Positions 7,849-30,906 of a DNA stretch of 64,000 nucleotides are shown here, piece after piece (position 1 is the first letter of the stretch; the number at the start of each line of letters is the position of its first letter). Source of the stretch: an uncultured Gammaproteobacteria bacterium (lineage in GTDB: Bacteria > Patescibacteriota > Patescibacteriia > CAZSQN01); contig CAZSQN010000002.1 in the NCBI GenBank assembly GCA_964609095.1, positions 88,066-152,065 on the forward strand. Direction: 5' to 3'. The notes beneath the pieces are model-generated. The model was not told where the DNA came from. It ran no database searches and saw nothing but the letters and a program-made list of their open reading frames with translations. Position numbers and translations under genes: made by a program.

Positions 7849-7969
7849 CCCAGCACATAACTTCTAGTGTGAGATTTTCGCAAATAGCCGATTGTGGAAT
7901 GTATTTTATCAAAATATATTGCGACAATTTATAATTGCGCATTTTTTAATTTAAAAATTATGTGCGGGG
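7849..7969. promoter_or_regulatory. Motif-bracketed intergenic segment: degenerate CCCAGCACATAA (7849-7860) … TTATGTGCGGGG (7958-7969)
   Basis: Inverted copies of the recurrent 12-mer. Confidence 0.5.
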
Positions 7970-7973
7970 TCAA

Positions 7974-8002
7974 TAAAAAAACCGTCCATTAAGAATGGGC
8001 GG
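7974..8002 (-). terminator. Intrinsic terminator of the histidine-phosphatase gene
   Basis: Minus-strand hairpin ccgcccatt-ctta-atggacgg followed by T7. Confidence 0.6.
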
Positions 8003-8572
8003 TTACCGCTCCGGGGTTCCCGGCAATTCTACCATTTTGTACTCCCCTCGTTTCAAGTTTGGCTCTTGGCCAAGATGAAAAAGAAGGGTATTGAGACCAT
8101 TGCCATGGCCGATAAACAAAAGTACATTGCGCGGCCCGTTGCGGTGATAAAGGAAAAATCTGCGCGCTTCATCAGAAATCACCGCGCGGTGCCTGGAAAG
8201 CACGCTATCGCGGGATTCGCCGCCAAACTTCGTGAAATCATATTCGCGGGGCGTGAAAGCGCTGGCACCGGCGCCGTATTTGGCTTCAATTTCTTGAACC
8301 GTCATTCCTTCCAGTTTGCCAAAAGAGCATTCCCGAAGGCGATTATCCAAAAGAACCGGTATGCCCAGACGCCTGCCAAAAATTTCCGCTGTTTCCCGAG
8401 CGCGGGACATGTCAGAGGAAACAATCCGTCCTATGCCAAGAGGAGCCAATTGCCAGACAAACATTTCCGCCCGAGCGCGTCCAATATCATTTAAGGAAAT
8501 ATCCGTCTGGCCTTGCAAGCGGCCTTGATGATTCCAATCGGTGTCAAAATGGCGGACTAAAACAATTTTCAT
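8003..8572 (-). CDS. Histidine phosphatase family protein (phosphoglycerate-mutase-like)
   Basis: MKIVLVRHFDTDWNHQGRLQGQTDISLNDIGRARAE… matches the RHG motif family; ORF-track start 8626 looks over-extended. Confidence 0.8.
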   Translation of the reverse strand: MKIVLVRHFDTDWNHQGRLQGQTDISLNDIGRARAEMFVWQLAPLGIGRIVSSDMSRARETAEIFGRRLGIPVLLDNRLRECSFGKLEGMTVQEIEAKYGAGASAFTPREYDFTKFGGESRDSVLSRHRAVISDEARRFFLYHRNGPRNVLLFIGHGNGLNTLLFHLGQEPNLKRGEYKMVELPGTPER

Positions 8573-8856
8573 GGCGCGCTCTCCTCTTGCCGCCTGCTCC
8601 CGCTGCCAAAATCCAGCACCTGCCATTCGTAGTAGAGCGCGAGACGGCGCCTGTACCTCTTAATTTCTTCTTTGAGAATATAAATCGTCTCGCCGCAGAT
8701 GTGCTCCAAAACATCATCGGGATTCAAACTCATAAGCGGCGCCTTTAGCCACTCGCCAACTTCATGACTGTTTTGGTCAAGCAATCTGTGAATAATGACA
8801 TGGTCGGGATATTCGACCTTGACCCTTTCCACAAACTCGGCTGGATACTGCCTCAT
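8569..8856 (-). CDS. Hypothetical small protein (95 aa)
   Basis: An ORF with RBS aaaggagg upstream and a TTGACA-17-TTAAAT promoter; its stop overlaps the next start by 4 nt (ATGA). Confidence 0.55.
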   Translation of the reverse strand: MRQYPAEFVERVKVEYPDHVIIHRLLDQNSHEVGEWLKAPLMSLNPDDVLEHICGETIYILKEEIKRYRRRLALYYEWQVLDFGSGSRRQEESAP

Positions 8857-8915
8857 TTTACGCCTCCTTTTGCTGATTTGAACGGGATTGGTTTATTGTG
8901 AAAAGAACATTTGAG

Positions 8916-8944
8916 ATTTAACCAAATTCAAAGCCCGTTGTCAA
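8916..8944 (-). promoter_or_regulatory. Sigma70-like promoter (TTGACA-17-TTAAAT) for the 8856 gene
   Basis: Minus-strand reading: TTGACAacgggctttgaatttggTTAAAT; the motif palindrome 8946-8974 lies immediately upstream. Confidence 0.5.
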
Positions 8945-8945
8945 G

Positions 8946-8974
8946 CCCCGCACATAACAGAATTATGCGTTGGG
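8946..8974. promoter_or_regulatory. Compact palindromic copy of the 12-mer: CCCCGCACATAA-cagaa-TTATGCGTTGGG
   Basis: Seen in sequence. Confidence 0.5.
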
Positions 8975-9391
8975 TCAAGCCCGATAATACGGACTCGCCC
9001 GCCTAAACTCTTCGTAGTCCTCTATATAATCTTCGCGGTTAGACGAATAGTTGGTGGAAGATAGCGCCAAAATCACGCAGTCGGATGAAGCGTCTTTGAA
9101 TCCGTGCCAGATAAAATTGGGAACATAAATCGCATCGCTGGGAGCTGACAATTTAATCTCCTCCAAACCCTTGCCGCGGTCAATCACAGCCGTCGCGCTT
9201 CCTTGCGCCAATATAAAAACTTCTTCTTCTATTTTATGGCAATGCTCGCCCGTTTTCCCGCCCGCCTCAAAATCGGTTATATAATAAACGCGTTTTACTT
9301 CAAACGGAATCAAATCTTTCAGTTCAATCGGCGTCAGCTTATAGCCACGACTGGGAAATGTCTTTAATTCAAATTTTCTAAATTCCTTCAT
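8975..9391 (-). CDS. fdtA: dTDP-4-keto-6-deoxyhexose 3,4-ketoisomerase (FdtA/QdtA/WxcM-like cupin)
   Basis: …GEHCHKIEEEVFILAQG…VPNFIWHGF…; a C-terminal DYIEDYEE-type tail. Confidence 0.75.
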   Translation of the reverse strand: MKEFRKFELKTFPSRGYKLTPIELKDLIPFEVKRVYYITDFEAGGKTGEHCHKIEEEVFILAQGSATAVIDRGKGLEEIKLSAPSDAIYVPNFIWHGFKDASSDCVILALSSTNYSSNREDYIEDYEEFRRASPYYRA

Positions 9392-9398
9392 TAAATTA

Positions 9399-9497
9399 TA
9401 ACGCGAATGATGCGAATCTTATGCCAATATCACGCGAATATGCGAATATGGTATTTGCGTATTTGCGGCATTCGCATTCATTCGCGAAATTTGCGTT
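9399..9497. repeat. Paired octamer-repeat blocks: (T/C)GCGAATA x4 direct, then ATTCGCR / TTTGCG inverted
   Basis: cgcgaatga tgcgaatct … cgcgaatatgcgaatatgg tatttgcg tatttgcg gcattcgc attcattcgcg aaatttgcg. Confidence 0.65.
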
Positions 9498-9500
9498 ATG

Positions 9501-10514
9501 TTAAATAATAATGTGCGGATTTAACTCGTTTTTGCGAGCGGCAAGCAGAGAAACCCAAGCATCATTTTTCAAATACCAGTCAACTGTCTCGCGCAATCCT
9601 TGTTCAAATTTCTCCCGAGGATAAAGCGGGCTCCAGCCCAATTTCATAATCTTGCTTGCGTCTATGGCATAGCGCCTGTCGTGCCCGGGCCTGTCGGCAA
9701 CATTCATTGCTTTGATTTCTTTGCTCAATATATTTTTTAAAAGAGAAAAAACCTCCAAATTGCTTCGTTCATTGTCAGCGCCGATATTGTAAACCTCTCC
9801 CGGAGCGCCCTTGGCAAGCAATAATTCTATGGCGCTGCAGTGGTCAGCGACATGAATCCAATCACGCACATGCAAGCCGTCGCCGTATATCGGCACGACA
9901 TCGTCTTTAACGGCTTTAAAAATCGTCTGCGGTATGAATTTTTCCGGAAACTGATACGGACCGTAGTTATTGGAACAATGCGTAACAATTACCGGAGTCC
10001 TGAATGTCTGATAATAAGAGCGGCAGACCATATCGCCGCCGGCCTTGCAGGCCGCGTAAGGCATATTTGGAGCGAAAGCGGTTTCTTCCGTGAATTTTTT
10101 TTCATCGTCAAGGCCGAGCGTGCCGTAAACTTCATCAGTTGAAATTTGTATAAATAAAGGAACGTTGCGCTTCTTGGTTGCTTCACAAAGCACTTGCGGC
10201 CCCATGACATTCCCAAAAACAAAATCGCGGAGAGAACCGTGGATGGAACGGTCCACGTGCGTTTCGGCGGCAAAATTAACAATTGCGTCAGGCCGCAGCT
10301 GCTCCACCGCGGAAAAAACAGCTGCCTCGTCGGCAATATCTCCTTTTATAAAGGAATAACGCGGGTCGTCTTCAAAATCGCGCAAATTTTCAAGATTGCC
10401 GGCATAGGTAAGCTTGTCAAAATTCACGACAAACCAATCAACATGCTTGCCTAAAATATGTCTGATAAAATTTGAGCCGATAAACCCGGCCCCGCCGCAA
10501 ACAAGCAACTTCAT
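9501..10514 (-). CDS. rmlB: dTDP-glucose 4,6-dehydratase
   Basis: MKLLVCGGAGFIGSNF…DKLTYAGNLENL… RmlB-type SDR; the ORF-track start (GTG at 10523, 'MRGM') lies inside the 12-mer; the real start is ATG at 10514. Confidence 0.9.
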   Translation of the reverse strand: MKLLVCGGAGFIGSNFIRHILGKHVDWFVVNFDKLTYAGNLENLRDFEDDPRYSFIKGDIADEAAVFSAVEQLRPDAIVNFAAETHVDRSIHGSLRDFVFGNVMGPQVLCEATKKRNVPLFIQISTDEVYGTLGLDDEKKFTEETAFAPNMPYAACKAGGDMVCRSYYQTFRTPVIVTHCSNNYGPYQFPEKFIPQTIFKAVKDDVVPIYGDGLHVRDWIHVADHCSAIELLLAKGAPGEVYNIGADNERSNLEVFSLLKNILSKEIKAMNVADRPGHDRRYAIDASKIMKLGWSPLYPREKFEQGLRETVDWYLKNDAWVSLLAARKNELNPHIII

Positions 10515-10515
10515 A

Positions 10516-10610
10516 CCCCGCACATAATTTATTTAATAATTAGATAAACCGTGTTTTAATCTTTCTATTTTCCCGCACACTACTCATAATAAACAAATTT
10601 ATGTGCGGGG
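10516..10610. promoter_or_regulatory. Intergenic segment bracketed by CCCCGCACATAA (10516-10527) and TTATGTGCGGGG (10599-10610), with a third degenerate copy CCCGCACAC at 10572
   Basis: The left copy abuts the rmlB ATG; the right copy overlaps the HIT stop codon. Confidence 0.55.
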
Positions 10611-11012
10611 TTCTTTACGAATTTTTTTAGCAATCTCCGCCAGCTCATCCTTTTCCGCGGACTGGCCGTGCCAGAGCGCGTGCCCGTCGCCGGGAAATCT
10701 CGGCATGATGTGAAAATGCAAATGAGGAACAATCTGCCCCGCGTCGCGGCCGTTATTTAAACCGAGATTAAAGGCCTCCGCGCCAACCGCTTTCAATATC
10801 TTTGGCGCCAATTTGTGAATTACCGCCATAATCGCGCAGACGTCTTCTGTTTTAGATTCCTCCAAATTCCCGGCATGATTTTTTGCGATCACCAGCGCGT
10901 GCCCGGGATTTACCGGATGAATATCCAAAAAAGCAAATACTTTGTCGTCTTCATATACTTTGTGGGCTGGAATCTCGCCGGCGATGATTTTGCAAAAAAG
11001 ACAGTCGGACAT
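10599..11012 (-). CDS. HIT-family (histidine triad) nucleotide hydrolase
   Basis: HxHxHxx motif in VPHLHFHIMPRF; N-terminal CLFCKI. Confidence 0.85.
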   Translation of the reverse strand: MSDCLFCKIIAGEIPAHKVYEDDKVFAFLDIHPVNPGHALVIAKNHAGNLEESKTEDVCAIMAVIHKLAPKILKAVGAEAFNLGLNNGRDAGQIVPHLHFHIMPRFPGDGHALWHGQSAEKDELAEIAKKIRKEPRT

Positions 11013-11047
11013 AATTTCAAATTTATGATTTCAAATTTCAAATTTAG
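11013..11047. repeat. Tandem heptamer (AATTTCA)x5
   Basis: aatttca aatttat gatttca aatttca aatttag, immediately upstream of the HIT start. Confidence 0.65.
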
Positions 11048-11394
11048 TTTTTGTTGAGTTCGTAAATTATTTTGCAAACGGCGGAGCTGGCCAAAGCGGC
11101 GCCGGCAGTAATGATAATTCCGGCCTTTCCAAGATTAGCCGTCGCCTCCCAAACAAAAAATATGGTACCTGCCAAAACCGCGAGCGTCAATAGAACAGAA
11201 GCAATCGGATGCATTGTCCCGCCGTCTTTGTCGGGGGTCACAACAGAGCCGATGATAAACGCAAAAAGAAGCAAAAATAAACCGGAGAGAGAAATAAAAT
11301 TGGCGGCCGCGCCGGAACTGAACATTTCAGCGGCTCCAAATATCAGAAAAGCCGACAGAAGGCCTTTAGAAATGGCATTTAACGCGAAGCGCAT
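11044..11394 (-). CDS. Small hydrophobic membrane protein (3-4 TM), hypothetical
   Basis: Hydrophobic translation; translationally coupled to the upstream gene. Confidence 0.5.
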   Translation of the reverse strand: MRFALNAISKGLLSAFLIFGAAEMFSSGAAANFISLSGLFLLLFAFIIGSVVTPDKDGGTMHPIASVLLTLAVLAGTIFFVWEATANLGKAGIIITAGAALASSAVCKIIYELNKN

Positions 11395-11395
11395 A

Positions 11396-12781
11396 TTATT
11401 TTCTAAAAACCGCGCTTATGTATCTTATCCTCGCGCTTCCCTGACTGGAACCACGCCCGGGAAGCGACAGAAAAAAGCGGTAGCTCCCGTCCGGCTCTCT
11501 GGCAAGTTTATTCAGATCAAATTTTGCTTCGGATGCCAGATAATCTTTTTCCTCTTTGGGGACGGCGTATTTGGCTATGATGATTCCCTCTTTTGGCGGC
11601 TCTGCCCAAGCCGCAATCTCCGGCCAGGCGGGAACAAAAAAATCTTCGGGTGAAAAAGCAAAAAAACCTGAAGTTACAAGCTCAACATCGCCTTTCTCCG
11701 GCTTAATGGAAACAATGCCGCCGGGCGCTCGCGAAAGCGCGAGCTCCGCGTATTTATCGGTGCGCTTAATTTCAAAAGAGCGTCCGGCAAAAAATATTTT
11801 TTGCCACCCTTCGCGATGCGGCGTTTTGGCTCTTAAATATCGGCCGTCGCTCCAGAGAACCGGAACGATTGTTTTCCCGCCGAAACCGACATCGTCGCCC
11901 AAAAAAATCCTGTCCTCCACGACCAGACGCGCCGCTTCCGCTTTGATATTTCTGATAAAAATATCATCACTCGCGCTAAAAACAATCTTTAACGGCCCGC
12001 TGACTCCGGAAAGGGAAACCCGTATTTCTTTTGGCGCTTCCAAAAAATTGGCATTATCGCCGCCGCTGTCTTCCGCAACAATTTTTTTAATAATCTTATC
12101 TTTTGAATAGGCCTCAATGGCAATCGGGTCTTCTCCGGCGTGCCTGTTGGCATCCTGCACCGTAAAAATTATCTCCGCTTTGCCACGAGCTTCGGGCAAG
12201 GCCCAAAAAATATGGCCGCCGCGGAGATTTGCCGGAATATCCCTCGTTCGCGCCGCGCCATTGCCCATAATTTTCCCCAACCGGAATCCCAAAGTATAAA
12301 CAGGCGCGCCGCCTTCCAGAATTTTTTCCAATTCTTGGGAGGAATTTTTATTTTTAAAAATTATAAAACCGTCTTTCTCCGTCTTTTCCCAATCAGGATT
12401 TTGGAGCATTTCGGAGTAAAGAACGCGGCTGTCAATATCAACCGCGCCGGGACCCTTTTTTGCCTCTAATCGGAAGAGCGGCGCCTCGGGCTTATCATAA
12501 GCCACCCTCATTTCTATTTCCTTAAATTCCGCCGGCGGGGCAACGACAAAGGTCACCCGCTCTCCGATGATTATAAAATCGGAAAGGTTATTGGTTTTGG
12601 CCAAAGCGTCAGGCGGTCCAAAGCCGTAGATAAACGGCGACTCTTTGCCCGGAATCCATACCGCCTTAAAAACGCCGCCGGGAACGGTATTCCAAACCCA
12701 TAACAAAAACATGGCCGCGCCGCCGAATAAAACTATGATAAAAAATCGCAATGTTCTTAACGGCATATTATTTTGGCGCAA
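11396..12781 (-). CDS. Hypothetical membrane-anchored/secreted protein (461 aa)
   Basis: N-terminal TM; no recognisable domain. Confidence 0.55.
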   Translation of the reverse strand: MRQNNMPLRTLRFFIIVLFGGAAMFLLWVWNTVPGGVFKAVWIPGKESPFIYGFGPPDALAKTNNLSDFIIIGERVTFVVAPPAEFKEIEMRVAYDKPEAPLFRLEAKKGPGAVDIDSRVLYSEMLQNPDWEKTEKDGFIIFKNKNSSQELEKILEGGAPVYTLGFRLGKIMGNGAARTRDIPANLRGGHIFWALPEARGKAEIIFTVQDANRHAGEDPIAIEAYSKDKIIKKIVAEDSGGDNANFLEAPKEIRVSLSGVSGPLKIVFSASDDIFIRNIKAEAARLVVEDRIFLGDDVGFGGKTIVPVLWSDGRYLRAKTPHREGWQKIFFAGRSFEIKRTDKYAELALSRAPGGIVSIKPEKGDVELVTSGFFAFSPEDFFVPAWPEIAAWAEPPKEGIIIAKYAVPKEEKDYLASEAKFDLNKLAREPDGSYRFFLSLPGRGSSQGSARIRYISAVFRK

Positions 12782-14396
12782 GCTCGTACAATCTCTCCGC
12801 CCCGAAGCTCATTGTTTCGCGAAGCGAAAATCCGGCCTGATTGTAATTTTTGATTCTTGGGTCGTCCTCATCAAGGCGCAGGGCGTACAAATAAAGCGGC
12901 CCGATTCTGCTTAAATCCTTTAACGAGCGGATGACCGCTTCCGAACCGGTGTCCGCGACCACGCGGCGATGCGGAAAAAAAATTTTATCCGACTTGTCGG
13001 TGATAATAACGGCGTTCTCCGGAGTCGCTCCTAACACGATTTTTCTGATTGCGCCGTAGCGTCGCAATTCGCGGGAAACATACGCCAGCCCTTCGCCGGC
13101 GCCGTAAAATACGGTTCTAAACGATAAAACCGCGCCGGCCAGAAGGGCAAAAATAAGAAAAAAATTGCGCCAGCCGCGGCGGTTTATTTTTTGCGCGACT
13201 AAATCAAGAAACCACGCGCCCAAAGGAATGCCGCCGATGTAAAGAGGCAGCCAATATCTTACGGTTGAAGTGCCGATAGTTATCATCCGCGGGTCAGGCG
13301 TGTCTAAAAAATAACCGCTGCCGTAAATCAAAACCAGCGGCGCGGAAATAACGAGAAGTATGGCCGAGAGGAGCCAAAGCCCTTCCGGAGCTTGTTTTGC
13401 AAGACGCCGGCGGAGCAAAACAACCGCGCCGGCCCCGGCCGCAAAGGCATACCACCAAAAAAATAATAGGCCGTATTGCCAAATATTTCTCGCGATATGG
13501 CGAAGCGAAAATCCAAACGGAAAAAGATTAAAGCTTCCGTAACCTGCCGGGAGCAAGCTGCCGTAGAAAAAACGCGAGACAAAAACCAAAATTATTACGG
13601 ATACAAGCGCGAAACAGCCATAAACAATCCAAGACGGCTTTGAAACATGTTTTCGGTATTTCCAAAGCAAAAATGCCGCGAGCGGCAAAAGCCAGATCGC
13701 CTCAAAAGTCCGCGTAAAAATCGCGGCGGCAAAAAAACCGGCTGCCAGCGCCGCGTCCATAATTTTTCCGATTGCCGGTCCGTCCTCGGCCCGCCGCGCC
13801 GCAAACGGGCGGACAACGGCGAAAAAAAGCGCGAGAATTAAAAAATCAAGAAAAACAACGTTATGAAACAATCCTCTATTGGCGTAATACCAAAGAGCGG
13901 GATGCGTGAGGGCCAAAAGGACGGACAGCATAGCCACTCTCCGGCTGACGATTTTTTGAAGCAATCTGCCAAAAGCAATAAGAGCAGCGGCCGTAAAAAA
14001 AGGCGTGAGAAACGGCGCCGCGCGCGCTCCGATAAGCGCGGCCGGGAGCGCGTAAATAAAAATCATGCCGATAAAACTGCCGGGCACAAGCAAACCGCCG
14101 GAGACGGAAACGGAACGCGGGTGTATTAATCCGCCGGACCAGACGACGGCCGGGTCAAAAAATGCCAGCCCTTGGCCTTGGGCAAGGCGGCTGATAAAAA
14201 AAGCATTGGCCGTCTCATCCGGCGAGTTCCATATATCCGACGGAGCAAAAACAGCCAAAAAAGAATAAAGCGCGAACGCGCTCAAAAAAATTAAAAATTG
14301 AAAATTGCGCACCCGAGGCGCATCCGCCTTGGGCGGAAAAATTGAAAATTTTATTTTATGTTCCATGTGAAGCAAGCGAGAGAAGGGCGAAAACAA
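12768..14396 (-). CDS. GT-C-fold membrane glycosyltransferase (ArnT/PMT, GT39/GT83-like)
   Basis: Polytopic membrane protein; a DE motif in the first loop (SPDETANAFFISRLAQG); start possibly at MEHKIKF (14366). Confidence 0.65.
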   Translation of the reverse strand: MFSPFSRLLHMEHKIKFSIFPPKADAPRVRNFQFLIFLSAFALYSFLAVFAPSDIWNSPDETANAFFISRLAQGQGLAFFDPAVVWSGGLIHPRSVSVSGGLLVPGSFIGMIFIYALPAALIGARAAPFLTPFFTAAALIAFGRLLQKIVSRRVAMLSVLLALTHPALWYYANRGLFHNVVFLDFLILALFFAVVRPFAARRAEDGPAIGKIMDAALAAGFFAAAIFTRTFEAIWLLPLAAFLLWKYRKHVSKPSWIVYGCFALVSVIILVFVSRFFYGSLLPAGYGSFNLFPFGFSLRHIARNIWQYGLLFFWWYAFAAGAGAVVLLRRRLAKQAPEGLWLLSAILLVISAPLVLIYGSGYFLDTPDPRMITIGTSTVRYWLPLYIGGIPLGAWFLDLVAQKINRRGWRNFFLIFALLAGAVLSFRTVFYGAGEGLAYVSRELRRYGAIRKIVLGATPENAVIITDKSDKIFFPHRRVVADTGSEAVIRSLKDLSRIGPLYLYALRLDEDDPRIKNYNQAGFSLRETMSFGAERLYELAPK

Positions 14397-19180: not shown

Positions 19181-19252
19181 ATTAAAAAACGCCCGCTATC
19201 GCACGCAAAATATTGCTAATAACAATTTTAAGCTATAGCTGATTTTTGTTAT
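19181..19252. repeat. 72-bp perfect direct repeat, copy 1
   Basis: attaaaaaacgcccgctatcgcacgcaaaatattgctaataacaattttaagctatagctgatttttgttat; identical to 19908-19979. Confidence 0.9.
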
Positions 19253-19280
19253 TATATTTTTATAATCTCAAACTTAAATA

Positions 19281-19907: not shown

Positions 19908-19979
19908 ATTAAAAAACGCCCGCTATCGCACGCAAAATATTGCTAATAACAATTTTAAGCTATAGCTGATTTTTGTTAT
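19908..19979. repeat. 72-bp perfect direct repeat, copy 2
   Basis: Identical to 19181-19252. Confidence 0.9.
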
Positions 19980-19985
19980 CTTAAA

Positions 19986-20010
19986 TAAAAAACCTCCGCG
20001 TTAGCGAAGG
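19986..20010 (-). terminator. Terminator of the lytic-transglycosylase gene (hairpin with a G·U pair, then U6)
   Basis: Minus-strand reading: ccttcgc-taac-gcggagg-tttttt. Confidence 0.45.
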
Positions 20011-23105: not shown

Positions 23106-24239
23106 CTATAAAATAATTTTATTCCATATCTGTGCTATTCGCGGCAGGGCATAATGCTCCCGCGCTCTTTCTAACGCAGCCCTTCCCATTTCCGCGTCCG
23201 CTTCTTTGGAAAAAAATTCTTCAAACTTGCGCGCCAAAGCTGATATGTTTCCGGCGGGAACCAAAAAACCCGTTTCGTTATTTTTTATAACGGTTCTCAC
23301 GCCCGGCAAATCCGTCGCGATCGCCGCCAGCCCCGAAGCGGCCGCTTCCAAAAGTACGATGCCAAAGGCCTCCGAGCTGTCTATTGACGGAAGAACAAAC
23401 AAGTCCGCCAGATTATAGTACTTTGGCAAATCCGCTTCGCTTGCGGAACCGACGAAAATAGTTCTGGAGTCAATACCTAATTCTTTGGCGAGTTTTTCAT
23501 AAAACGGACGCAGATTGCCGTCGCCGACTATTAACAGGGTATAGGGTAGAGGGTGGAGGGTGGAGGAAAATTTTTTAAATGCATCAATCAAAACAGGAAC
23601 ACCTTTAAAATAGTGGGCACTGTCTAAGCCCCCGACAAAAAGAATGACTTTTTCTTCAGATGAGATTTTTAATCTTGCCGCAAACTCCGCATCACGCGGG
23701 CGCGGAGCAAACCTCTCCGTGTCCACACCAAGAGGAATTTCTATAAATTTATCCGATTGCGCCGCAACCAAGCCCCGAAGCGCGCCGGAATAGGCATAAT
23801 CAAGCGAAGTGACAATAACTTTGCCGGCACGGCCGAGGATTAAAGGCATTAGATATTTTTGGTGCCAGCGAAAAATTCTTCCCAGCAGTCCCTTGCCGCG
23901 CACATCCATATGATAAAAAATAATCAGCCTGGCTTTTGGCCTCATGAACAAAAAAAATTCCGCGGCGCCGAAAAAAGGATAATGCAAAATAACGGCGTCA
24001 AAGCCGCGAATTTTCCATAAAATCTGCGGAACTATGGCCGCGTTTCCATATTTTAAGACCGGCCTTAACCGTGTCAGCCGGTATTTTCCGGAACTTAAAC
24101 CATCCGCTCGGCTGTATAACGGCGAAAAGACCTCTACTTCGTGTCCGGCTTTGGCAAATGCTTCTGCCTGCTCTTTTGCCACCATTCCTATTCCTCCCTT
24201 ATACGGCGGAAAAACCGGCGTCACTATGGCAATTTTCAT
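23106..24239 (-). CDS. Glycosyltransferase family 4
   Basis: MKIAIVTPVFPPYKGGIGMV…; C-terminal EAAASGLAAIATDLPGVRTVIKNNETGFLV; ORF-track GTG 24248 ('MRGM') lies in the 12-mer and the real ATG is at 24239; contains a heptamer tract at 23530-23560. Confidence 0.85.
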   Translation of the reverse strand: MKIAIVTPVFPPYKGGIGMVAKEQAEAFAKAGHEVEVFSPLYSRADGLSSGKYRLTRLRPVLKYGNAAIVPQILWKIRGFDAVILHYPFFGAAEFFLFMRPKARLIIFYHMDVRGKGLLGRIFRWHQKYLMPLILGRAGKVIVTSLDYAYSGALRGLVAAQSDKFIEIPLGVDTERFAPRPRDAEFAARLKISSEEKVILFVGGLDSAHYFKGVPVLIDAFKKFSSTLHPLPYTLLIVGDGNLRPFYEKLAKELGIDSRTIFVGSASEADLPKYYNLADLFVLPSIDSSEAFGIVLLEAAASGLAAIATDLPGVRTVIKNNETGFLVPAGNISALARKFEEFFSKEADAEMGRAALERAREHYALPRIAQIWNKIIL

Positions 24240-24240: not shown

Positions 24241-24376
24241 CCCCGCACATAATTTCGATATTAAAGTAATTTAGAAAATTTTTTGTTTTAATTTTAAACT
24301 CTATTTATCTATTTCACTGGTCTTAACTTGTTTCCCATCCCGTGAACGCGGGATGGAATCGAAGTTATGTGCGGGG
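24241..24376. promoter_or_regulatory. Intergenic segment bracketed by CCCCGCACATAA (24241-24252) and TTATGTGCGGGG (24365-24376); internal hairpin ccatcccg-tgaacg-cgggatgg (24333-24354)
   Basis: Seen in sequence. Confidence 0.55.
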
Positions 24377-24379: not shown

Positions 24380-25480
24380 TTACCAAAAAATAAACGCTCT
24401 CGCTATAACCCAATACAAAATCAAGAGCGGATTCACGAAATAGAGAACGAAAGGATTTTTAAAATCCTGAAAAAGAATGGCGGGAGTAAAAAGGTCAACA
24501 ATTTCGCAATCGCTCTTTTTTCTGGCTTTTTGCGCCATCTGCCGCGCCTTTAGCAGATTTTTCCAGTTATTCAGAGATAAAAAATATTTATATCCTTTTA
24601 TCTTTTCTTCAAACCATCCGGAGCGCAGAGAAAAAAGCAAAAGTCCGGCTTCGGCCGCCAAAAGCGCCGGCGCAAGCAAAAGCAAGGTCGGCAATTTATA
24701 TAATTTAAACATAACCATAAACCGATTCCGCTCCATCCAGTAATACTTCTTGATGCTGCGCGAAAATTCGTATTTATGATAAATCCAGCTCCTTGGCGCG
24801 AGAATATTTTCATATCCGGCCAATCGCAGCCGCCAGCCCAAGTCCAAGTCCTCGTGATATAAAAATAATTCTTTGTCAAAGAGTCCCATTTCGGAGAGAG
24901 CCGACGCCCGATAGAGAACTCCGGCGCCGGAGCCGTAAGCTATTTTAAAATTTTTTTCAAAAGATATTTTTTCGGCTATCAGCTTTTCAACATCAGATAA
25001 ATTCATTCCGTATCCGCGCGCGTAACCAAATCCCAAAAAATGAATGGCGTTGCCAAAAGAGTTCACGGTGGTTTTGTTATCGTGTAGAAGTATAAGGGAT
25101 TGAATTGACCCTGCTGATTTTGCCTCTTCGGCTAATTTTACGGTTTCGAAAATAAAATTAGGGTCAACTTCCGTATCCTGATTAAGCAGATAAATATAAT
25201 CAAACCCAGCCTCCAGCGCGAGCCGCATGCCGATATTATTGCCTTCGGCAAAGCCCAGATTTTCCTTGTTTTCTATCAAGTTAATTTTAGAAAGCTTTGT
25301 TCCCGACTTCGGCAAAATTTCATTTTTAAAAAAAATTAAACCGTCATCGCTTGAACCGTTATCAATAACAAAAATCTCCGCGTCCTTAGCCGGATAATTC
25401 ATTGCTTCAAGCGAAGCAAAACAGTCGGCTAAATATTGCCGACCGTTATAAAGAAGATAAATGACGGCAACCCGAGGCAT
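24380..25480 (-). CDS. Glycosyltransferase family 2 (rhamnosyltransferase-like) with a C-terminal membrane segment
   Basis: …IFVIDNGSSDDG… and …LLNQDTEVD… (DXD) motifs. Confidence 0.8.
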   Translation of the reverse strand: MPRVAVIYLLYNGRQYLADCFASLEAMNYPAKDAEIFVIDNGSSDDGLIFFKNEILPKSGTKLSKINLIENKENLGFAEGNNIGMRLALEAGFDYIYLLNQDTEVDPNFIFETVKLAEEAKSAGSIQSLILLHDNKTTVNSFGNAIHFLGFGYARGYGMNLSDVEKLIAEKISFEKNFKIAYGSGAGVLYRASALSEMGLFDKELFLYHEDLDLGWRLRLAGYENILAPRSWIYHKYEFSRSIKKYYWMERNRFMVMFKLYKLPTLLLLAPALLAAEAGLLLFSLRSGWFEEKIKGYKYFLSLNNWKNLLKARQMAQKARKKSDCEIVDLFTPAILFQDFKNPFVLYFVNPLLILYWVIARAFIFW

Positions 25481-25492: not shown

Positions 25493-25554
25493 AAAATTAA
25501 GAATCAAGAATTAAGAAAAAAGTTTACTTCTTAATTCCCACTTCTTGATTCTCG
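25493..25554. repeat. Paired heptamer blocks: ttaagaa tcaagaa ttaagaa … ttcttaa…ttcttga (exact reverse complements)
   Basis: Two alternative 10-bp stems, gaattaagaa/ttcttaattc and gaatcaagaa/ttcttgattc. Confidence 0.7.
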
Positions 25555-25865: not shown

Positions 25866-26533
25866 CTGAATAAGTCCCCCCTGATTAAATCAAGCATTAT
25901 TTTTATTGCGCCGCCGCTTCTCTGCCCTTTGCCCAGCGAGTAGGGGCTGTAATTTACAGTTACCGGAACTTCGCGATAAGCCAAATTCAGACGGCTGATT
26001 TCGCTTAAAATTTCTGAGGCGTGGGCAAACCTGTCTTGCGTTATTTTGATGCGGCTTGCGGCGCGCCGAGAAAAGGATCGGAAGCCGTTATGCGTGTCGG
26101 TTATTTTAAGCCCGGTTGTTAATCTGGTAAAAAACACGGCTAAATGCAAAAGAATTTTTCTTCCAGCCGGCATAGATACCGCCGAGCCGATAAACCTTGA
26201 CCCCAAAGCAACTTCGGCAATGCCGCCGGCTATTGGCGCAATAAGCGACGGGATATCGGATGCGTCTTGCTGAAGATCAGCGTCAAAAGTGACAATGATA
26301 TCCGCTCCGCGCATAAGCGCGGCGCGGATGCCGGTGCGCAAAGCCGCTCCCTGCCCCCTGTTTATGGCATGCCTTAAAACATTAGCGCCCGCGCCAGAGG
26401 CGCGCAGCCCCGTAGCATCCTGCGAGCCGTCATCTATAACTATCACCTCGTCCGCGTATTTCCGCGCCTCGCTTACGGCCAGGGAAACGGTCTGCTCTTC
26501 ATTGTGCGCGGGAATGACTACAATAGTACGCAT
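25862..26533 (-). CDS. GT2 polyprenyl-phosphate glycosyltransferase (dolichol-phosphate-mannose synthase-like)
   Basis: MRTIVVIPAHNEEQTV…VIVIDDGSQDAT…TFDADLQ…. Confidence 0.85.
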   Translation of the reverse strand: MRTIVVIPAHNEEQTVSLAVSEARKYADEVIVIDDGSQDATGLRASGAGANVLRHAINRGQGAALRTGIRAALMRGADIIVTFDADLQQDASDIPSLIAPIAGGIAEVALGSRFIGSAVSMPAGRKILLHLAVFFTRLTTGLKITDTHNGFRSFSRRAASRIKITQDRFAHASEILSEISRLNLAYREVPVTVNYSPYSLGKGQRSGGAIKIMLDLIRGDLFR

Positions 26534-26598
26534 AAATTTCAGATTTCAAATTTAAAATTTAAAAAATAAATCTAAAATCTGAAATCACAAATCTGAAA
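26534..26598. repeat. Paired heptamer blocks: (ATTTCAR/ATTTAAA)x4 … (TCTRAAA)x4
   Basis: atttcag atttcaa atttaaa atttaaa aaataaa tctaaaa tctgaaa tcacaaa tctgaaa. Confidence 0.75.
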
Positions 26599-27612
26599 TT
26601 AGGCGATGCCCAACAATTCTTTATGCGCGAGGGTGTAATCAATGGATTGCTTTAACCCCTCATCAAGTTTAACAAGAGGAAACCATCCCAACGTCTCTTT
26701 GGCTTTGCTTAAATCCGGCAGCCCCAAAGGAGTCATAAAAAGAAGCGGGGGTTCAAAACGGATTTTTGAGGACGAACCGGTCATCTGGATTATTTTTGCC
26801 GCCACATCAGCCAATTTCCACTCCTCGTCATTGCCCAAATTAACCGGCCCGATCCCGGAAGGCGCGCTCATAAGTTTGATAAGCCCGTCCACAATATCAG
26901 AAACATAAACAAGAGACGTCTTAAAATTGTCATCACCATAGATTACAAGGTCCCTGCCTTCCAGCGCGTCAACGATAAAATCCGGCACCATTTCGCCGTC
27001 AAAAAGGCGCTGGCGCGGCCCATAAGTGCGGAAAATACGGGCGATCTTTACATCCAGTTTATGCACCTGCTCGTAAGTGGCGCAGATTGTTTCCGCAAAT
27101 CTTTTTCCCTCGTCATAGCAAGCTCGGGGCGAAAGCTGGTCTATAGCGCCCAAATCCGTTTCCTTAAATTTTTCTTTATCCGGCCGCCGCGGCCCGTAAA
27201 CCACGGAGGTGGAAGCGTGCACGACTTTGGCTTTGTATTTAACTCCCAATTCAGCCGCATTTTTGGCAGCGGCGGAATTGGACTCCAGTGTCTGCAGTTT
27301 AAACTGGTCAAAATTTTTCGCGCTGGTGGGACAGGCGAGATGATAAATTTCCTGAATACCCTGAAATTTAACCTTGAATCTGTCCAGCTCTTTAAAACTT
27401 TCCAGCTCCAGCGGCTTGGTCATGTCGTGCCTTAAAAATTCAAAATCAGGCAATTGCAAAAGGCGGTCAATATTCCGTTCATTAGAATTGATAAAACTGT
27501 CAACGCAGATAACATGGCTGTCTTTGAGCAGCCGCTCGCACAAATGCGAGCCGATAAAGCCGGCCCCTCCGGTTACCAGCACGTTTTTTTTCTCAAAAGT
27601 TAGTTCGGCCAT
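26599..27612 (-). CDS. NAD-dependent epimerase/dehydratase (UDP-glucuronate decarboxylase-like SDR)
   Basis: VLVTGGAGFIGSHLCERLL…YHLACPTS…ASTSVVYG…. Confidence 0.75.
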   Translation of the reverse strand: MAELTFEKKNVLVTGGAGFIGSHLCERLLKDSHVICVDSFINSNERNIDRLLQLPDFEFLRHDMTKPLELESFKELDRFKVKFQGIQEIYHLACPTSAKNFDQFKLQTLESNSAAAKNAAELGVKYKAKVVHASTSVVYGPRRPDKEKFKETDLGAIDQLSPRACYDEGKRFAETICATYEQVHKLDVKIARIFRTYGPRQRLFDGEMVPDFIVDALEGRDLVIYGDDNFKTSLVYVSDIVDGLIKLMSAPSGIGPVNLGNDEEWKLADVAAKIIQMTGSSSKIRFEPPLLFMTPLGLPDLSKAKETLGWFPLVKLDEGLKQSIDYTLAHKELLGIA

Positions 27613-27618
27613 ATTTTT

Positions 27619-27723
27619 AAGAGATAAGAGATAAGAGATAAGAGTTAAGAGTTAAAAATTTAGAAAGCTCTCTCAACTTTCAACTTTTAACTTTCAGCTT
27701 ACAGCTTACAGCTTTATCTTTAT
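27619..27723. repeat. Paired heptamer blocks: (AGAGATA)x3(AGAGTTA)x2 … (AACTTTC)x3(AGCTTAC)x3
   Basis: Seen directly; the second block ends at the subtilase stop codon. Confidence 0.8.
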
Positions 27724-30014
27724 TATCGCAACACTGCCGCGTTAACGCCGCCGCGCATATCTTTGCCATAAGCGTCCACTTGCGAAAAAAGCAGCCCGTC
27801 GGGAGTAAAGGTGCGCAATATCGGATCCGCGCCTGCTCCGGCGCCGGTAATTATCTCGCTTTTGCCGTCGTTGTCAAAATCAAAGGAGGCAAGCGTGACT
27901 CCGGACGATTTGCCGTTTACATACGCCTGAAATTCGTGGCGGAGAATCCCTTTGGCGTTAAAAATCTTCACATTGCGGCGCCGACCTCCGGCCGGAGCAA
28001 TGGCTATTTCGCTTATCTTATCGCCGTCAATGTCAATTGCCTGCGCTTCCACGCCTCCCAAAAAAGATTGCTCATAGGCGAAAAACTCCGAGATTGGAAT
28101 TCCGTCTCCCTGAAAAATCTGCACATGGGGTCCGCCGCCCGGACCGGCGGAAACAATTATTTCGTCATTGCCGTTTCCTTCCACATCTCCGGCGGTTATG
28201 CCAAACGCACCCCTGAATTTGCGCGAAAAAGGAAAAAATCTGTAATGAAGCGTGCCGTCAAAACCAAAAATCCTTACCTCGGCGTCGCGGCCGCCTCCGC
28301 TCGCGGCCACAATCTCGTCTATGCCGTCTCCATTCACATCCGAAGCGGCCACGCGCACGCCTCCGCGGTAAGATGTTTCAAAAGCGAAAAAATTTTTTAT
28401 CGGCGTGCCGTCCGGCTTAAAGACGCGGATATGAGGCCCGCCTCCGGCGCCGGCTCCCGTGATTATCTCCTGGCTTCCGTCTCCGTCCAAATCGCCCGTG
28501 GCAACGGAAACGCCTCCCTTAAAAGACGGCGCGTAAGCCATAAAAGATCTTTCAATTGTTCCGTCGCGGGCGATTATTCTTACTTCCGGCGCGTATTGTC
28601 TTGCCGGCGCGACAACATAACGCGGCTCTGCCGTCGGCACCGCGATGCGGTTCCCGGCTGCCGTGCGCGTGGTATTGCCGGCGCGCAAAGCCGCCGCCAA
28701 GTCCGGTTTTCCCCGGCCGAGCTTTCCGCGAAAATTAGGGTTGACGGAATCAACGGGCACGGCATTGCTAAGGAGCAGGTCCCTCATTTCAATGTTGGTA
28801 AAAGAAAGATCAAAGGCCTTAAGCAAGGCCGCGCCGCCCGCGACTTGCGGAGCGGCCATTGATGTGCCTCGCCAGGGGCCGCCAAAAGCAAGGCCGTAAT
28901 CGGGCAAGGAGGGGTCATAATATTGCGCGCTAAAAATGCCAATGCCGGGAGCAGCCAGGTCCACGCAGCGGCCGTAATTGGAAAACTTTAATTTTTGATC
29001 AAGAGTATCCAAAGCGGCAACGGCTATGACCCAGTTTTCCCCGGACGGGCCGTCGGAGCAAGCCGGATAAACCAACACCGCGTCCATATCAATTCCGTTT
29101 TGCCCGTTCAAGGTTGAGTTGCCGGCCGCCACCACGACAAGCGCTCCGGCGTTATACGCGCGCTCAATCGCCCGCTCCAGCGTGATGCTGCGCTCCGTGC
29201 CAACAAAAGAAAGATTTAAGATCTTAGCCCCGTTTTTAATGGCGTAATCAATGGCCGCGGCAACAGTGGCGGCGTTGCCGGCGCCTTTGGAATCAAGAAC
29301 GCGCAGGGGCATAATTTTAACTTTCCAGGCAACGCCCGCGCCCTCTGAGCCGTTATTGCCGACGGCGCCGATTATTCCGGCCACCACCGTTCCGTGATTT
29401 ATGCCCGTTGCCGTGGCGCCGATGCCAAATTGCGGAGAAACATCGTTTGTTCCCTCAATAAAGTTCCAGCCATGGATATCGTCAATGTAGCCGTTTCCGT
29501 CATCATCTCGGCCGTTGCCGGCGACCTCAAGCGTATTTGTCCAGATATTGCCGGCCAAATCCGGATGGTCCAAATCCAAACCCGTATCCAAAACCGCGAC
29601 AACCGCGTCTTCAGAGCCGGTAGAAACGTCCCATGCCTCCGGCGCGTTGATTTGCGGCAGATGCCACTGCTTTGGGTATTCGGGATCGTTTGGCAAAAGC
29701 GCCATGCCGTAAGAAGCGTTTTTCTCAGCATACTCAACCCAGGGGTTGGCATTATAAATCCGCAGCAGCTCCCCGGCTCCCATGTCCGCAAAAGGCGCGA
29801 CTAAATATGGCTTTTCCCTGCTCCGAAGTTTAACCAAAATCTCTCCGCTATCTTCCAAAGACGAATCCTTATTTCCCAAAGCCAGCCCTTGGCCGGCCGA
29901 AAAGATCAAAAAAGCCGCCAAAAAGACGGCAAAGGGGTAAAAAACAAATAAAAAACGGGTAAAGCGCCGTTCGGAGGGCGCGCAGGAAAAAAATTTTTTA
30001 CAGCCAAAACGCAT
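27723..30014 (-). CDS. Subtilisin-like serine protease (S8) with C-terminal FG-GAP/VCBS repeat domain
   Basis: Catalytic triad D (VAVLDTGLDLDHPD), H (HGTVVAG), S (GTSMAAPQVAG); five or more repeats of …GDLDGDGSQEIITGAGAGGGPHIRVF…; N-terminal signal/TM. Confidence 0.88.
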   Translation of the reverse strand: MRFGCKKFFSCAPSERRFTRFLFVFYPFAVFLAAFLIFSAGQGLALGNKDSSLEDSGEILVKLRSREKPYLVAPFADMGAGELLRIYNANPWVEYAEKNASYGMALLPNDPEYPKQWHLPQINAPEAWDVSTGSEDAVVAVLDTGLDLDHPDLAGNIWTNTLEVAGNGRDDDGNGYIDDIHGWNFIEGTNDVSPQFGIGATATGINHGTVVAGIIGAVGNNGSEGAGVAWKVKIMPLRVLDSKGAGNAATVAAAIDYAIKNGAKILNLSFVGTERSITLERAIERAYNAGALVVVAAGNSTLNGQNGIDMDAVLVYPACSDGPSGENWVIAVAALDTLDQKLKFSNYGRCVDLAAPGIGIFSAQYYDPSLPDYGLAFGGPWRGTSMAAPQVAGGAALLKAFDLSFTNIEMRDLLLSNAVPVDSVNPNFRGKLGRGKPDLAAALRAGNTTRTAAGNRIAVPTAEPRYVVAPARQYAPEVRIIARDGTIERSFMAYAPSFKGGVSVATGDLDGDGSQEIITGAGAGGGPHIRVFKPDGTPIKNFFAFETSYRGGVRVAASDVNGDGIDEIVAASGGGRDAEVRIFGFDGTLHYRFFPFSRKFRGAFGITAGDVEGNGNDEIIVSAGPGGGPHVQIFQGDGIPISEFFAYEQSFLGGVEAQAIDIDGDKISEIAIAPAGGRRRNVKIFNAKGILRHEFQAYVNGKSSGVTLASFDFDNDGKSEIITGAGAGADPILRTFTPDGLLFSQVDAYGKDMRGGVNAAVLR

Positions 30015-30026
30015 GTCAAAATATAA

Positions 30027-30785
30027 TTATTCTTTAAGTTGTGAAGCGGTTTGATTTGCCAATTTCTCTTCAAGCTCCTTAATCGCGGCCTGATACGGCT
30101 CATGGCCGGGCATAATCAAAGCAAGCTTTTTATACATCTGAAGCGCCTCGGCAAACTGTTCTGTTTCCACAAGATAAGAAACATAATCAGCGGCCAATCT
30201 TAAAACCTCCTGACCGACTAAAACGGCCAAACCCTTTTGGTAAAACGCCCTTATCTCTTCCGGCGTCTTTTTAAGGTCGTAGCGCATCAGCTCTGCTCTC
30301 GCGATGTATATTCCGGCTTCTCCGGGATTGCTTTTGATGGCTTCAAGATAATATCGGTCGGCTCGCTCAAATTCTTTTAAATAACGAAGAACATTGGCGG
30401 CATTCAAAAATGGCAAGTAATTTCTATCGCCAAATTTTTTTATAGCTTTGTCATAAACGTCCAGCGCGTTGCGGTAAAACACGGCTTCAGTGGTTGCGTC
30501 GGCAACGCTTTTCCATCTAAAACCGGCTGATAAATACATTTCTAAATTATCTTCATCCTTTTTAAGGAGCTTATCGCCTTCTTTGGCCGCGCTATAAAGC
30601 TCGGACCACGCGGGATTATTTTTTATTTTTGCCGCGACGCGCCGCTCTTCTTTGAAGGCGGAGGCAATGTTTAGCGCGGGCGGGAGGAGCAGGATAAGCG
30701 CGAGAAGCAACGCGAAAACAACTAAAATCCGGCGGCGTTTCCCGGCAAAAAAATTATTAATTTGAGCAACAAATTGATTGTTCAT
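30027..30785 (-). CDS. TPR-repeat protein with N-terminal TM anchor
   Basis: TPR-like helical repeats; ORF-track GTG 30794 ('MRGM') is in the 12-mer and the real ATG is at 30785. Confidence 0.65.
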   Translation of the reverse strand: MNNQFVAQINNFFAGKRRRILVVFALLLALILLLPPALNIASAFKEERRVAAKIKNNPAWSELYSAAKEGDKLLKKDEDNLEMYLSAGFRWKSVADATTEAVFYRNALDVYDKAIKKFGDRNYLPFLNAANVLRYLKEFERADRYYLEAIKSNPGEAGIYIARAELMRYDLKKTPEEIRAFYQKGLAVLVGQEVLRLAADYVSYLVETEQFAEALQMYKKLALIMPGHEPYQAAIKELEEKLANQTASQLKE

Positions 30786-30786
30786 A

Positions 30787-30906
30787 CCCCGCACATAATT
30801 TATTTAATACTAAATAGTCAAACAACCTATATTTTAATTGTTATTTTTAACATGTCTTAATTCTTTAATCAAATAAACATGAAATATAAACAAATTATGT
30901 GCGGGG
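30787..30906. promoter_or_regulatory. Divergent intergenic segment bracketed by CCCCGCACATAA (30787-30798) and TTATGTGCGGGG (30895-30906)
   Basis: The 27 bp CATACCCCGCACATAATTTATTTAATA is identical to the sequence upstream of rmlB (10511-10537). Confidence 0.55.

Follow-up and report, generated by a model that had tools for sequence, protein, structure and literature searches.

Paired 12-mers between the genes of a glycan locus

The stretch of DNA analysed here (the window) comprises 64,000 nucleotides of contig CAZSQN010000002.1 (assembly GCA_964609095.1), and its HIT protein is listed under a Candidatus Uhrbacteria bacterium, the group to which the host is assigned. The region in question is a cell-surface glycan locus, which encodes rmlA, rmlD, rmlB, fdtA, several glycosyltransferases of the GT2 and GT4 families and an initiating sugar transferase, and in which nearly all genes are located on the minus strand. 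We consider a 12-mer, CCCCGCACATAA, that brackets intergenic regions of this locus as inverted pairs and that probably represents the ends of a very small palindromic element family with its own GIY-YIG nuclease gene.

The window contains eight exact copies of the 12-mer, compared with 0.01 expected from dinucleotide-preserving shuffles, and when up to two mismatches are allowed only one further convincing copy appears, at 7849 (CCCAGCACATAA). The arms are oriented convergently, as CCCCGCACATAA...TTATGTGCGGGG (consensus pair A-CCCCGCACATAA ... TTATGTGCGGGG-T), and delimit four brackets of 95-136 bp and one collapsed hairpin of 29 bp. All five units are confined to the rml/glycosyltransferase region at 7.8-31 kb, and the part from 31 to 64 kb has none; the brackets follow one another at distances of 1-13.6 kb, across multi-gene operons, and the arms of a pair are 71-112 nt apart. 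Brackets without an open reading frame (ORF) between the arms are called ORF-less.

Exact copies of CCCCGCACATAA: 7958 (minus), 8946 (plus), 10516 (plus), 10599 (minus), 24241 (plus), 24365 (minus), 30787 (plus), 30895 (minus).
7849..7969, minus strand: ORF-less bracket of 121 bp, arms at 7849-7860 (CCCAGCACATAA, one mismatch) and 7958-7969.
8946..8974, minus strand: collapsed bracket, CCCCGCACATAA-cagaa-TTATGCGTTGGG, right arm with three mismatches, interior of 5 nt.
10516..10610, minus strand: ORF-less bracket of 95 bp between the HIT gene (10599-11012) and rmlB (9501-10514).
24241..24376, minus strand: ORF-less bracket of 136 bp between a GT2 gene (24380-25480) and a GT4 gene (23106-24239).
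30787..30906, minus strand: ORF-less bracket of 120 bp between a TPR gene and a sugar-transferase gene.

The first-pass annotation, which had been made from the letters of the window alone, was sound with regard to the eight copies, their non-random recurrence and the four bracketed intergenic regions, and needs correction in some details. Among the degenerate copies it proposed, those at 7849 (one mismatch) and 8963 (three mismatches, the decayed partner of 8946) are genuine; the one at 10572 is merely an internal partial copy of 8 nt, and 9511 is rejected, being conserved coding sequence of the rmlB C-terminus (..NPHI..) that is also present in motif-less relatives. The identity of two left ends is real and extends over 29 nt (10510-10538 and 30781-30809), not 27 nt.

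Beyond the 12-mer the arms are prolonged by complementarity that is specific to each pair, giving an imperfect total of 20-29 nt; at 24241-24376, for instance, the extension is TTTCGAT/ATCGAAG. Long single DNA hairpins are predicted for the brackets with perfect arms (z = -4.6 at 10516, -6.5 at 24241 and -5.8 at 30787), and the predicted DNA fold is weaker for 7849-7969 (z = -3.0) and for the collapsed 8946-8974 (z = -1.8).

In gene sense, every bracket starts past the end of the upstream gene. At three brackets the minus strand reads TTATGTGCGGGG-T-ATG, the ATG being that of rmlB, the GT4 glycosyltransferase and the TPR protein, and, as had been noticed at the outset, an in-frame GTG within the motif yields an identical 'MRGM' start for these three genes; gene callers should avoid this GTG as a gene start. 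The arm at 10599-10610 codes for the final residues of HIT together with its TAA stop (..K-E-P-R-T-TAA), and the collapsed unit begins immediately past the stop codon of fdtA (8975-8977). The bracket 7849-7969 is located between the terminator of a histidine-phosphatase gene and a promoter-like site of rmlD and is flanked by the 4-bp direct repeat TCAA (plus strand; TTGA in the minus sense). The bracket 30787-30906 is flanked by the 4-bp direct repeat CATA; on one side of it lies the TPR gene (30027-30785, minus) and on the other the divergent sugar-transferase gene, whose ATG is near 31003 (plus).

A longer form with a GIY-YIG nuclease gene

The arms and a nuclease gene belong together. The complete form of the element measures ~252-259 bp and has a single gene, for a single-domain GIY-YIG nuclease of 74-75 aa, and this gene takes up the room between the arms. 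In two brackets, 254-255 bp in length (4654-4907 in locus L025 and 5275-5529 in locus L045; retrieved loci carry L numbers), a complete 74-aa ORF begins 2-4 nt past one arm and stops 2-3 nt ahead of the other, and its product matches the GIY-YIG catalytic domain, Pfam PF01541 only, with E = 2e-11, above the curated cut-off. The association was approached from both sides, each of the two tests preselecting part of it, by exact arms at the spacing of the ORF or by close homology to the ORF between the arms. Each of the 12 metagenome loci in which exact arms stand 215-245 nt apart has the ORF between them (124-139 bits with a hidden Markov model (HMM) of the family), and three homologues picked on protein similarity alone are all flanked by the arms or by variants of them:

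L056: exact arms, between the genes of NusG and ribosomal protein L11.
L055: arms CCCAGCACATAA/TTATGTGCTGGG, a compensatory double change; CCCAGCACATAA is also the 7849 arm of the window.
L053: arms CCCAACACATAA/TTATGTGCTGGG, with one mismatch left.

In total, the ORF lies between arms in 17 of the 17 loci listed, which correspond to 12 distinct elements after identical copies are collapsed, with 0-8 nt from arm to ATG and 0-3 nt from stop to arm. The brackets have hairpin potential, and the complementarity of the arms is kept through the double change in L055. A protein search gives at least 987 clusters of relatives with 74-77 aa; the best 120 listed are 65-100% identical to the query, and those among them with a named source come mostly from Patescibacteria. 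The catalytic positions (the two tyrosines of GIY/YIG and an Arg, a His and a Glu) show at least 95% conservation across 114 cluster representatives; the 74-75 aa protein is therefore under selection, and judged from this conservation the nuclease looks functional.

The short brackets look like deletion derivatives of the longer form, because a short bracket at an orthologous site retains the 3' part of the ORF. The junction between the genes of ribosomal proteins L24 and L5 is occupied by the ORF-bearing form in L025 and by a 100-bp bracket in L040, whose interior matches the 3' last third of the L025 element (80% over 100 nt, E = 1e-16) and keeps the peptide remnant MLKQDKKIRRFKKILKN. The units of the window are likely to be internal-deletion derivatives as well, judging from a DNA profile built from the 12 ORF-bearing elements, aligned on the gene-sense strand. 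In the bracket 10516-10610 this profile aligns 10610-10581 with its positions 1-30 and 10566-10516 with positions 214-255 at a marginal E = 0.02, and in 30787-30906 it aligns 30906-30858 with positions 1-45 at a marginal E = 0.035. The collapsed 8946-8974 fits an ongoing loss of interior sequence.

Locus L029 presents a GIY-YIG ORF of 83 aa (2480-2800) within a perfect 19-bp inverted repeat, CCCCGCACCTTTTAGCCTT / AAGGCTAAAAGGTGCGGGG. This ORF takes the place expected for helix P3 in RNase P RNA, right ahead of the conserved GGAGGAAAGTCCGGGC, and the same RNase P RNA gene holds both this element (P3) and an ORF-less 12-mer bracket (P12). The 19-bp repeat and the 12-mer have only the outer CCCCGCAC in common, and this octamer may be the part that matters.

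Empty sites and spread across genomes

The nearest relatives of the host in a collection of 5.8 billion proteins have HIT proteins that are just 70-72% identical, and the gene order of their loci (L048-L052) is that of the window. No motif was found in these five loci at up to two mismatches. The genes of HIT and rmlB overlap there by 4 nt (GTATGA) in L048-L051, with a NUDIX gene between them in L052, and a 4-nt overlap of rmlB with fdtA is present in L048, L049, L051 and L052 (L050 stops within rmlB). Because the junctions of the relatives are closed and motif-free, the brackets of the window are, by this comparison, insertions relative to related genomes; the presence/absence comparison that had been suggested at the outset is thereby answered, the bracketed segments being missing at orthologous Uhrbacteria junctions. 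Outside the glycan locus, L034 is without both of the insertions of L025. The contact with start and stop codons can be attributed to insertion at junctions where the stop and start of the relatives overlap (GTATGA): at such a junction both genes would survive only if the insert directly precedes the ATG and gives the upstream gene its stop.

The collection was scanned with one genome per species for an exact arm pair around an interior of 70-100 nt; the collection scans took in bracket sizes up to 124 bp and from 239 to 269 bp. The exact pair is present in 44 loci, from Saccharibacteria, Paceibacterota, Harrisonbacteria, Liptonbacteria, Colwellbacteria and other metagenome-assembled genomes (MAGs) of Patescibacteria, the non-Patescibacteria labels being those of a Planctomycetota MAG (21 of the 44) and one Bacteroidota MAG. 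The loci with these two labels code for the glycine cleavage system, SelA, 2-oxoacid:ferredoxin oxidoreductase and IcmF, which are not usual in Patescibacteria. Across 45 sources, the 12-mer nearly always occurs as a plus copy followed by a minus copy, 83-110 or ~245 nt apart. The units multiply within genomes and occur across phyla, the interiors of the brackets being unrelated across genomes and forming families within a genome. The contexts outside the window include the following:

L025: between the genes of L14, L24 and L5 in a ribosomal-protein operon.
L016: immediately upstream of 23S rRNA, and again ~270 nt inside 23S rRNA.
L034: between 23S and 5S rRNA.
L029: ORF-less bracket replacing helix P12 of RNase P RNA.
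L011 6364-6483 and L032 3956-4076: bracket around a tRNA-Ala(CGC) gene.

The units are tolerated at hairpin tips of structured RNA genes. Direct repeats of 4 bp flank 6 of 55 distinct brackets (TCAA twice, TTGA, TCTA, TAAA and CATA), compared with 0.2 expected from uniform base frequencies and ~0.7 estimated when the bias of the flanks (A before, T after) is considered. They come mainly from the Planctomycetota MAG, and CATA is the sole case among the exact-arm brackets of the window; 7849-7969 with its TCAA flanks stands outside the count of 55 (left arm with one mismatch). Target-site duplication, a check that had also been suggested, is thus weakly indicated. The element gave 0 matches in 2.9 million viral contigs at three spacings, and a literature search for the literal motif returned chance matches only (a type I-E-like CRISPR repeat and primers for the polymerase chain reaction).

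Several observations concern the surroundings of the brackets. The region of the tRNA-Ala bracket is 95% identical over 238 nt between the Paceibacterota (L011) and Liptonbacteria (L032) MAGs, the neighbouring genes are just 66-80% identical, and the outer flank has a sub-threshold tmRNA-like match of 19 bits. In the Bacteroidota MAG (L006 4850-5105; L015 7527-7777; L009 64-441) the repeat unit reaches ~150 nt past the bracket on one side; its three copies are 90-97% identical, and the bracket there is part of a larger repeat. The NusG|L11 junction is a hot spot of insertion, with four unrelated spacers of 58-322 nt among relatives whose NusG is ~90% identical, and in some Patescibacteria (L092 2047-2137; L093; L096) this spacer contains short tandem repeats with GCCTAGA units. 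Another type of hairpin in Patescibacteria has a conserved loop, which reads GGAGCGAAGCGACTA where the hairpin follows a gene and, as the complement, TAGTCGCTTCGCTCC where it precedes one (L075 2035-2075; L056 4940-4984 and 5240-5278); the stems are made from the 3' end of the adjacent gene itself or end exactly at the ATG. These hairpins flank many 12-mer brackets but also stand alone (L075), and they seem to form a repeat family of their own, with no copy in the window.

Promoter-like boxes lie close to some of the arms. The TTGACA that had been noted beside the motif is present on the minus strand at 7848-7843, directly against the left arm of 7849-7969, and at 8944-8939, against the 8946 arm, where it is followed by N17 and TTAAAT (8921-8916). 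The calls are made by consensus match only, and the first of them is as follows:

7819..7848, minus strand: sigma-70-like promoter TTGACA-N17-TTAAAT, 10 of 12 consensus positions, upstream of rmlD (6972-7808).

Such hexamers occur inside and beside brackets at a count not above shuffle expectation. A single promoter role of the motif is rejected, as its position relative to the -35 and -10 boxes varies by lineage: TTGACA is directed outward and abuts the motif in the window and in the Planctomycetota MAG, an inward TTGACC is overlapped in others, and in some Patescibacteria the motif stands 10 nt ahead of a TATA-like box.

Two other repeats were observed in the intergenic regions of the window. 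The rmlB|fdtA spacer contains at 9392-9500 a different palindromic insert with the arms CGCGAATGAATGCGAAT / ATTCGCATCATTCGCG (DNA fold z = -2.2). This makes it a second family of junction insertions, given that in related Uhrbacteria the two genes overlap by 4 nt. Two adjacent intergenic regions (19181-19269 and 19908-19996) hold an 89-nt direct repeat whose copies are 91% identical (~160 nt at 80% by BLAST).

Interpretation and comparison with known systems

We consider the 12-mer pairs to be the terminal inverted repeats of a very small palindromic element family that comprises a GIY-YIG nuclease gene, and we assign this reading a probability of about 0.75. The five units of the window would be ORF-less copies put into gene junctions of the Uhrbacteria glycan locus. 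Copies would persist only where both flanking genes remain intact, and consequently an arm may donate the TAA stop or sit 1 nt ahead of the ATG. The identical 'MRGM' mis-starts, the donated stop of HIT and the spacers within otherwise overlapping operons are accounted for by such an element. If the homologous SsnA of Neisseria is taken as the model, the two arms could pair in single-stranded DNA and provide a recognition stem for the nuclease, which would cut near the stem and so drive copying or modulate recombination or transformation. The transfer of SsnA-type biochemistry to the 74-75 aa family is an analogy, and it deserves much less confidence than the identification given above.

A number of points weigh against this reading. 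A GIY-YIG nuclease is no known transposase, and there is no established mechanism by which it would insert DNA at many sites. The arms are off the published SRM pattern of the SsnA targets, the protein belongs to a shorter subfamily than SsnA, and its cleavage of single-stranded DNA is suggested by analogy only. Target-site duplication of 4 bp is not general, most copies in Patescibacteria being without it. The empty sites come from relatives with ~70% identity at the protein level, which place the boundaries of insertion only approximately; three look-ups for a closer empty site at the NusG|L11 junction gave only mutually unrelated spacers of 58-100 nt. The interiors in the window resemble the ORF-bearing form marginally (E = 0.02-0.035, arms included), and an arm-less profile applied to these interiors gave no usable score, in a test that had no power. 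Finally, no GIY-YIG ORF of the 74-75 aa family occurs in the 64-kb window, and the copies there may be inactive relics.

It is conceivable, if rather doubtful, that the ~255-bp unit is autonomous, in that the nuclease would recognise the stem of its own ends in single-stranded DNA and the cut would copy the unit and its gene-less derivatives to new sites. Hairpin tips in the genes for rRNA and RNase P would then be among its targets, with hosts from several phyla; the unit would represent a new transposition chemistry based on GIY-YIG and would give Ssn-like single-strand DNA nucleases a new, programmable specificity (CCCCGCACATAA). Set against the sizes of insertion sequences (IS), such an autonomous unit would be smaller than any self-mobilising DNA element known to us in bacteria.

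On the one hand, the confinement of all five units to the 7.8-31 kb region raises the question of a selected role in the host, whereby cleavage of single-stranded DNA by a GIY-YIG nuclease at the glycan-gene brackets modulates the uptake or recombination of transforming DNA. This idea partly overlaps with the reading given above. The NTS repeats of Neisseria are clustered near genes for surface and virulence functions, and with SsnA, transformation by DNA that has NTS flanks is reduced (PMC11893778); the title and abstract of PMC10187176 report that Saccharibacteria are naturally competent; and canonical NTS-like repeats are present in L048, upstream of rmlD at the equivalent site. However, elsewhere the element sits in ribosomal-protein and rRNA operons and not in surface loci, the window is without the nuclease gene, and five clustered copies in one 64-kb sample are weak statistics, which makes such a role improbable. 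On the other hand, the arms could act in transcripts, pairing as RNase III-type stems that separate mRNAs or trim the precursors of rRNA, tRNA and RNase P RNA. The complementary flanks of 23S rRNA run on into the motif in L016 and L034, reading TTATGTGCGGGG-TGTGGTTT..AAATTTCTTAACAGG on the 5' side and CCTGTTAAGAAATTT..AAATCACA-CCCCGCACATAA on the 3' side, and the brackets within 23S rRNA or in the P12 position of RNase P RNA are in hairpin-tolerant places; short non-intron insertions in the 23S rRNA of candidate phyla radiation (CPR) bacteria are thought to be RNase III intervening sequences (PMC11270868). Yet RNase III does not need a fixed 12-mer, and this one is invariant across phyla amid differing surroundings, while the strict tie to a DNA nuclease gene indicates an element that acts at the DNA level. 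We regard RNA punctuation as quite unlikely to be the primary function; more likely, RNA processing is a consequence that renders the insertions harmless.

Two regulatory explanations were also weighed. Intergenic segments bounded by inverted repeats upstream of polysaccharide operons recall invertons, in which a recombinase flips the AT-rich interior and phase-varies the glycan operons as in the capsule loci of Bacteroides; the bracket 30787-30906 lies between divergent genes, and promoter-like hexamers are found in and beside brackets. Those promoter matches are no more frequent than shuffles predict, no recombinase domain was detected among the ORFs scanned (4.4-33 kb), the orientation is unchanged in the independent assembly contig L002, and the same repeats enclose a nuclease gene or a tRNA or sit in rRNA and RNase P genes, so this explanation has a very small probability. 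Even less probable is a shared operator or a 5' untranslated region/Shine-Dalgarno element of a glycan regulon, both of which had been offered in the first-pass annotation; in their favour, three copies stand 1 nt ahead of a start codon and two copies immediately precede a TTGACA box. GGGG that is separated from the ATG by 1 nt leaves too little room for a Shine-Dalgarno sequence, and half of the copies are at gene 3' ends. The motif is missing at the same genes in related Uhrbacteria, and the same pair is present in unrelated genomes and phyla, in ribosomal-protein operons, rRNA spacers, 23S rRNA, RNase P RNA and tRNA contexts. Its contact with the ATG reflects insertion at overlapping junctions (GTATGA).

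The element family connects two previous reports. GIY-YIG ORFs have been found in non-intron insertions of CPR rRNA genes, where spread by homing was judged unlikely (PMC11270868), and the transfer of GIY-YIG genes from Patescibacteria to other bacteria has been predicted (PMC12455944); the repeats are described in neither, and the 12-mer arms tie the two together. The hosts have streamlined genomes, in which multiplying DNA is unexpected. In addition, the 12-mer is a ready candidate substrate for a site-specific single-strand DNA nuclease.

Among known systems, several can be set aside on structural grounds. Integron attC sites (RYYYAAC ... GTTRRRY, in arrays of short promoterless cassettes) differ from the arms CCCCGCACATAA/TTATGTGCGGGG and from brackets that are 1-13.6 kb apart. 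Xer/dif sites have two 11-bp arms around a centre of 6-8 bp, whereas the arms here are 71-112 nt apart and only the decayed 8946-8974 is short (5 nt); the arms bear some resemblance to E. coli dif (GGTGCGCATAA..TTATGT). Readings as attC, Xer/dif, Tn3 ends or DNA uptake sequences fail on spacing, core sequence or genomic density. Free-standing GIY-YIG homing endonucleases such as phage T4 Seg and I-TevI are likewise selfish inserts of a nuclease gene between host genes; unlike them, the family described here has no DNA-binding extension, has terminal inverted repeats and occupies many unrelated sites instead of one conserved target.

Rickettsia palindromic elements and 23S intervening sequences resemble the brackets as palindromic inserts of ~100-150 bp in structured-RNA genes, the sites here being 23S rRNA, P12 and P3 of RNase P RNA and a position next to 5S rRNA. 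They differ in being without a nuclease gene and without conserved 12-bp ends, and the in-frame insertion into protein-coding genes that is typical of Rickettsia palindromic elements was not seen in our loci. The REP/REPIN-RAYT systems also consist of intergenic hairpin repeats tied to one small, repeat-flanked gene of nuclease type, with suspected action on hairpins in single-stranded DNA. However, RAYT is an HUH/Y1 protein of the IS200/IS605 type and the gene here is GIY-YIG; the 5' GTAG signature of REP was not found at the arm ends; and REPINs are inherited vertically within a genus, whereas the 12-mer crosses phyla.

The likeness to miniature inverted-repeat transposable elements (MITEs), among them the Correia elements of Neisseria, is closer, and the MITE-like option of the first-pass annotation was essentially right. 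The units are short and non-coding (95-136 bp), with perfect 12-bp arms as terminal inverted repeats; they are multicopy (five in the window), intergenic and polymorphic between relatives, with empty junctions in L048-L052 and L034; and their ends are common to the longer ORF-bearing form. Like Correia elements, they are often beside promoter boxes or create them and are co-transcribed as hairpins. What could not be foreseen from the window is the partner gene and the breadth of the family, which spans several phyla: the only gene of the ~255-bp form encodes a GIY-YIG nuclease of 74 aa and no recognised transposase, whereas Correia-type MITEs depend on a DDE transposase. The inconsistent target-site duplication (6/55), the interiors unrelated across genomes and the identical 12-bp end across phyla are further differences from MITEs.

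Of the published systems, Ssn/NTS (Chenal et al., Nat Commun 2025, PMC11893778) is the closest. In Neisseria, the single-domain GIY-YIG protein SsnA, of 94 aa, binds to single-stranded DNA at a hairpin repeat of 28 nt and cleaves next to it; the ssnA gene is flanked by the NTS repeat, which is present in hundreds of mostly intergenic copies, and an IS-like layout was noted by the authors (PMC11893778). For comparison, a gonococcal SsnA orthologue was taken from L062 (NZ_CP119140.1, PLSDB), and this orthologue is surrounded by seven exact NTS repeats. (Two complete Neisseria gonorrhoeae chromosomes, of 2.17 Mb, are filed as plasmids in PLSDB.) The HMM of the 74-aa family gives it 29.8 bits, versus 72 bits for another CPR GIY-YIG protein, and the best match of the 74-aa protein in the PDB is the UPF0213 protein 1zg2 (E = 1e-3). 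Judged by these comparisons, the fold and core are common with SsnA and the 74-75 aa family is a shorter, distinct subfamily, which may lie within or next to the Ssn clade cd10448.

The published SRM pattern, HGTCWYN(0-2)YYVSBRHN(0-5)WNVSBRGN(0-2)RNCYNB, matched no 12-mer bracket, and its 5' half, CGTCAC-CCCGCAC, fits some bracket copies. Across all loci it has four matches: three are canonical and NTS-like, found in L048 (two) and L046 (one), and the fourth, in L018, is of uncertain nature. The canonical Neisseria-type NTS/SRM hairpins, TGTCATTCCCGCGAAGGCGGGAATCCAG, form inverted pairs at 13757-13842 in L048 and at 4712-4785 in L046, a locus of the Planctomycetota MAG; the pair in L048, a locus of a Uhrbacteria relative, is located upstream of rmlD, at the site of a 12-mer bracket in the window. 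Their presence indicates that the published Ssn repeat exists in these lineages too.

In both systems a small single-domain GIY-YIG gene has a cognate inverted repeat on both sides (17/17 loci here), the repeat is multiplied as gene-less, mostly intergenic copies, and the core of the stem is C-rich (CCCGC). Three differences stand out. The protein is 74-75 aa long and is without the ~10-aa internal segment and the C-terminal extension of the 94-aa SsnA. Instead of a 28-nt hairpin on each side, two 12-nt half-stems of one stem enclose the gene or 70-110 nt. The Ssn study drew on RefSeq representative and reference genomes, with Patescibacteria unmentioned, whereas the hosts here are mainly Patescibacteria and the family is known from its sequences. 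The pairing of a GIY-YIG nuclease with a cognate palindromic repeat is therefore already known; the subfamily, the architecture and the repeat differ here, and they extend the Ssn/NTS type of pairing between a small GIY-YIG nuclease and hairpin repeats to a second, shorter subfamily with another architecture.

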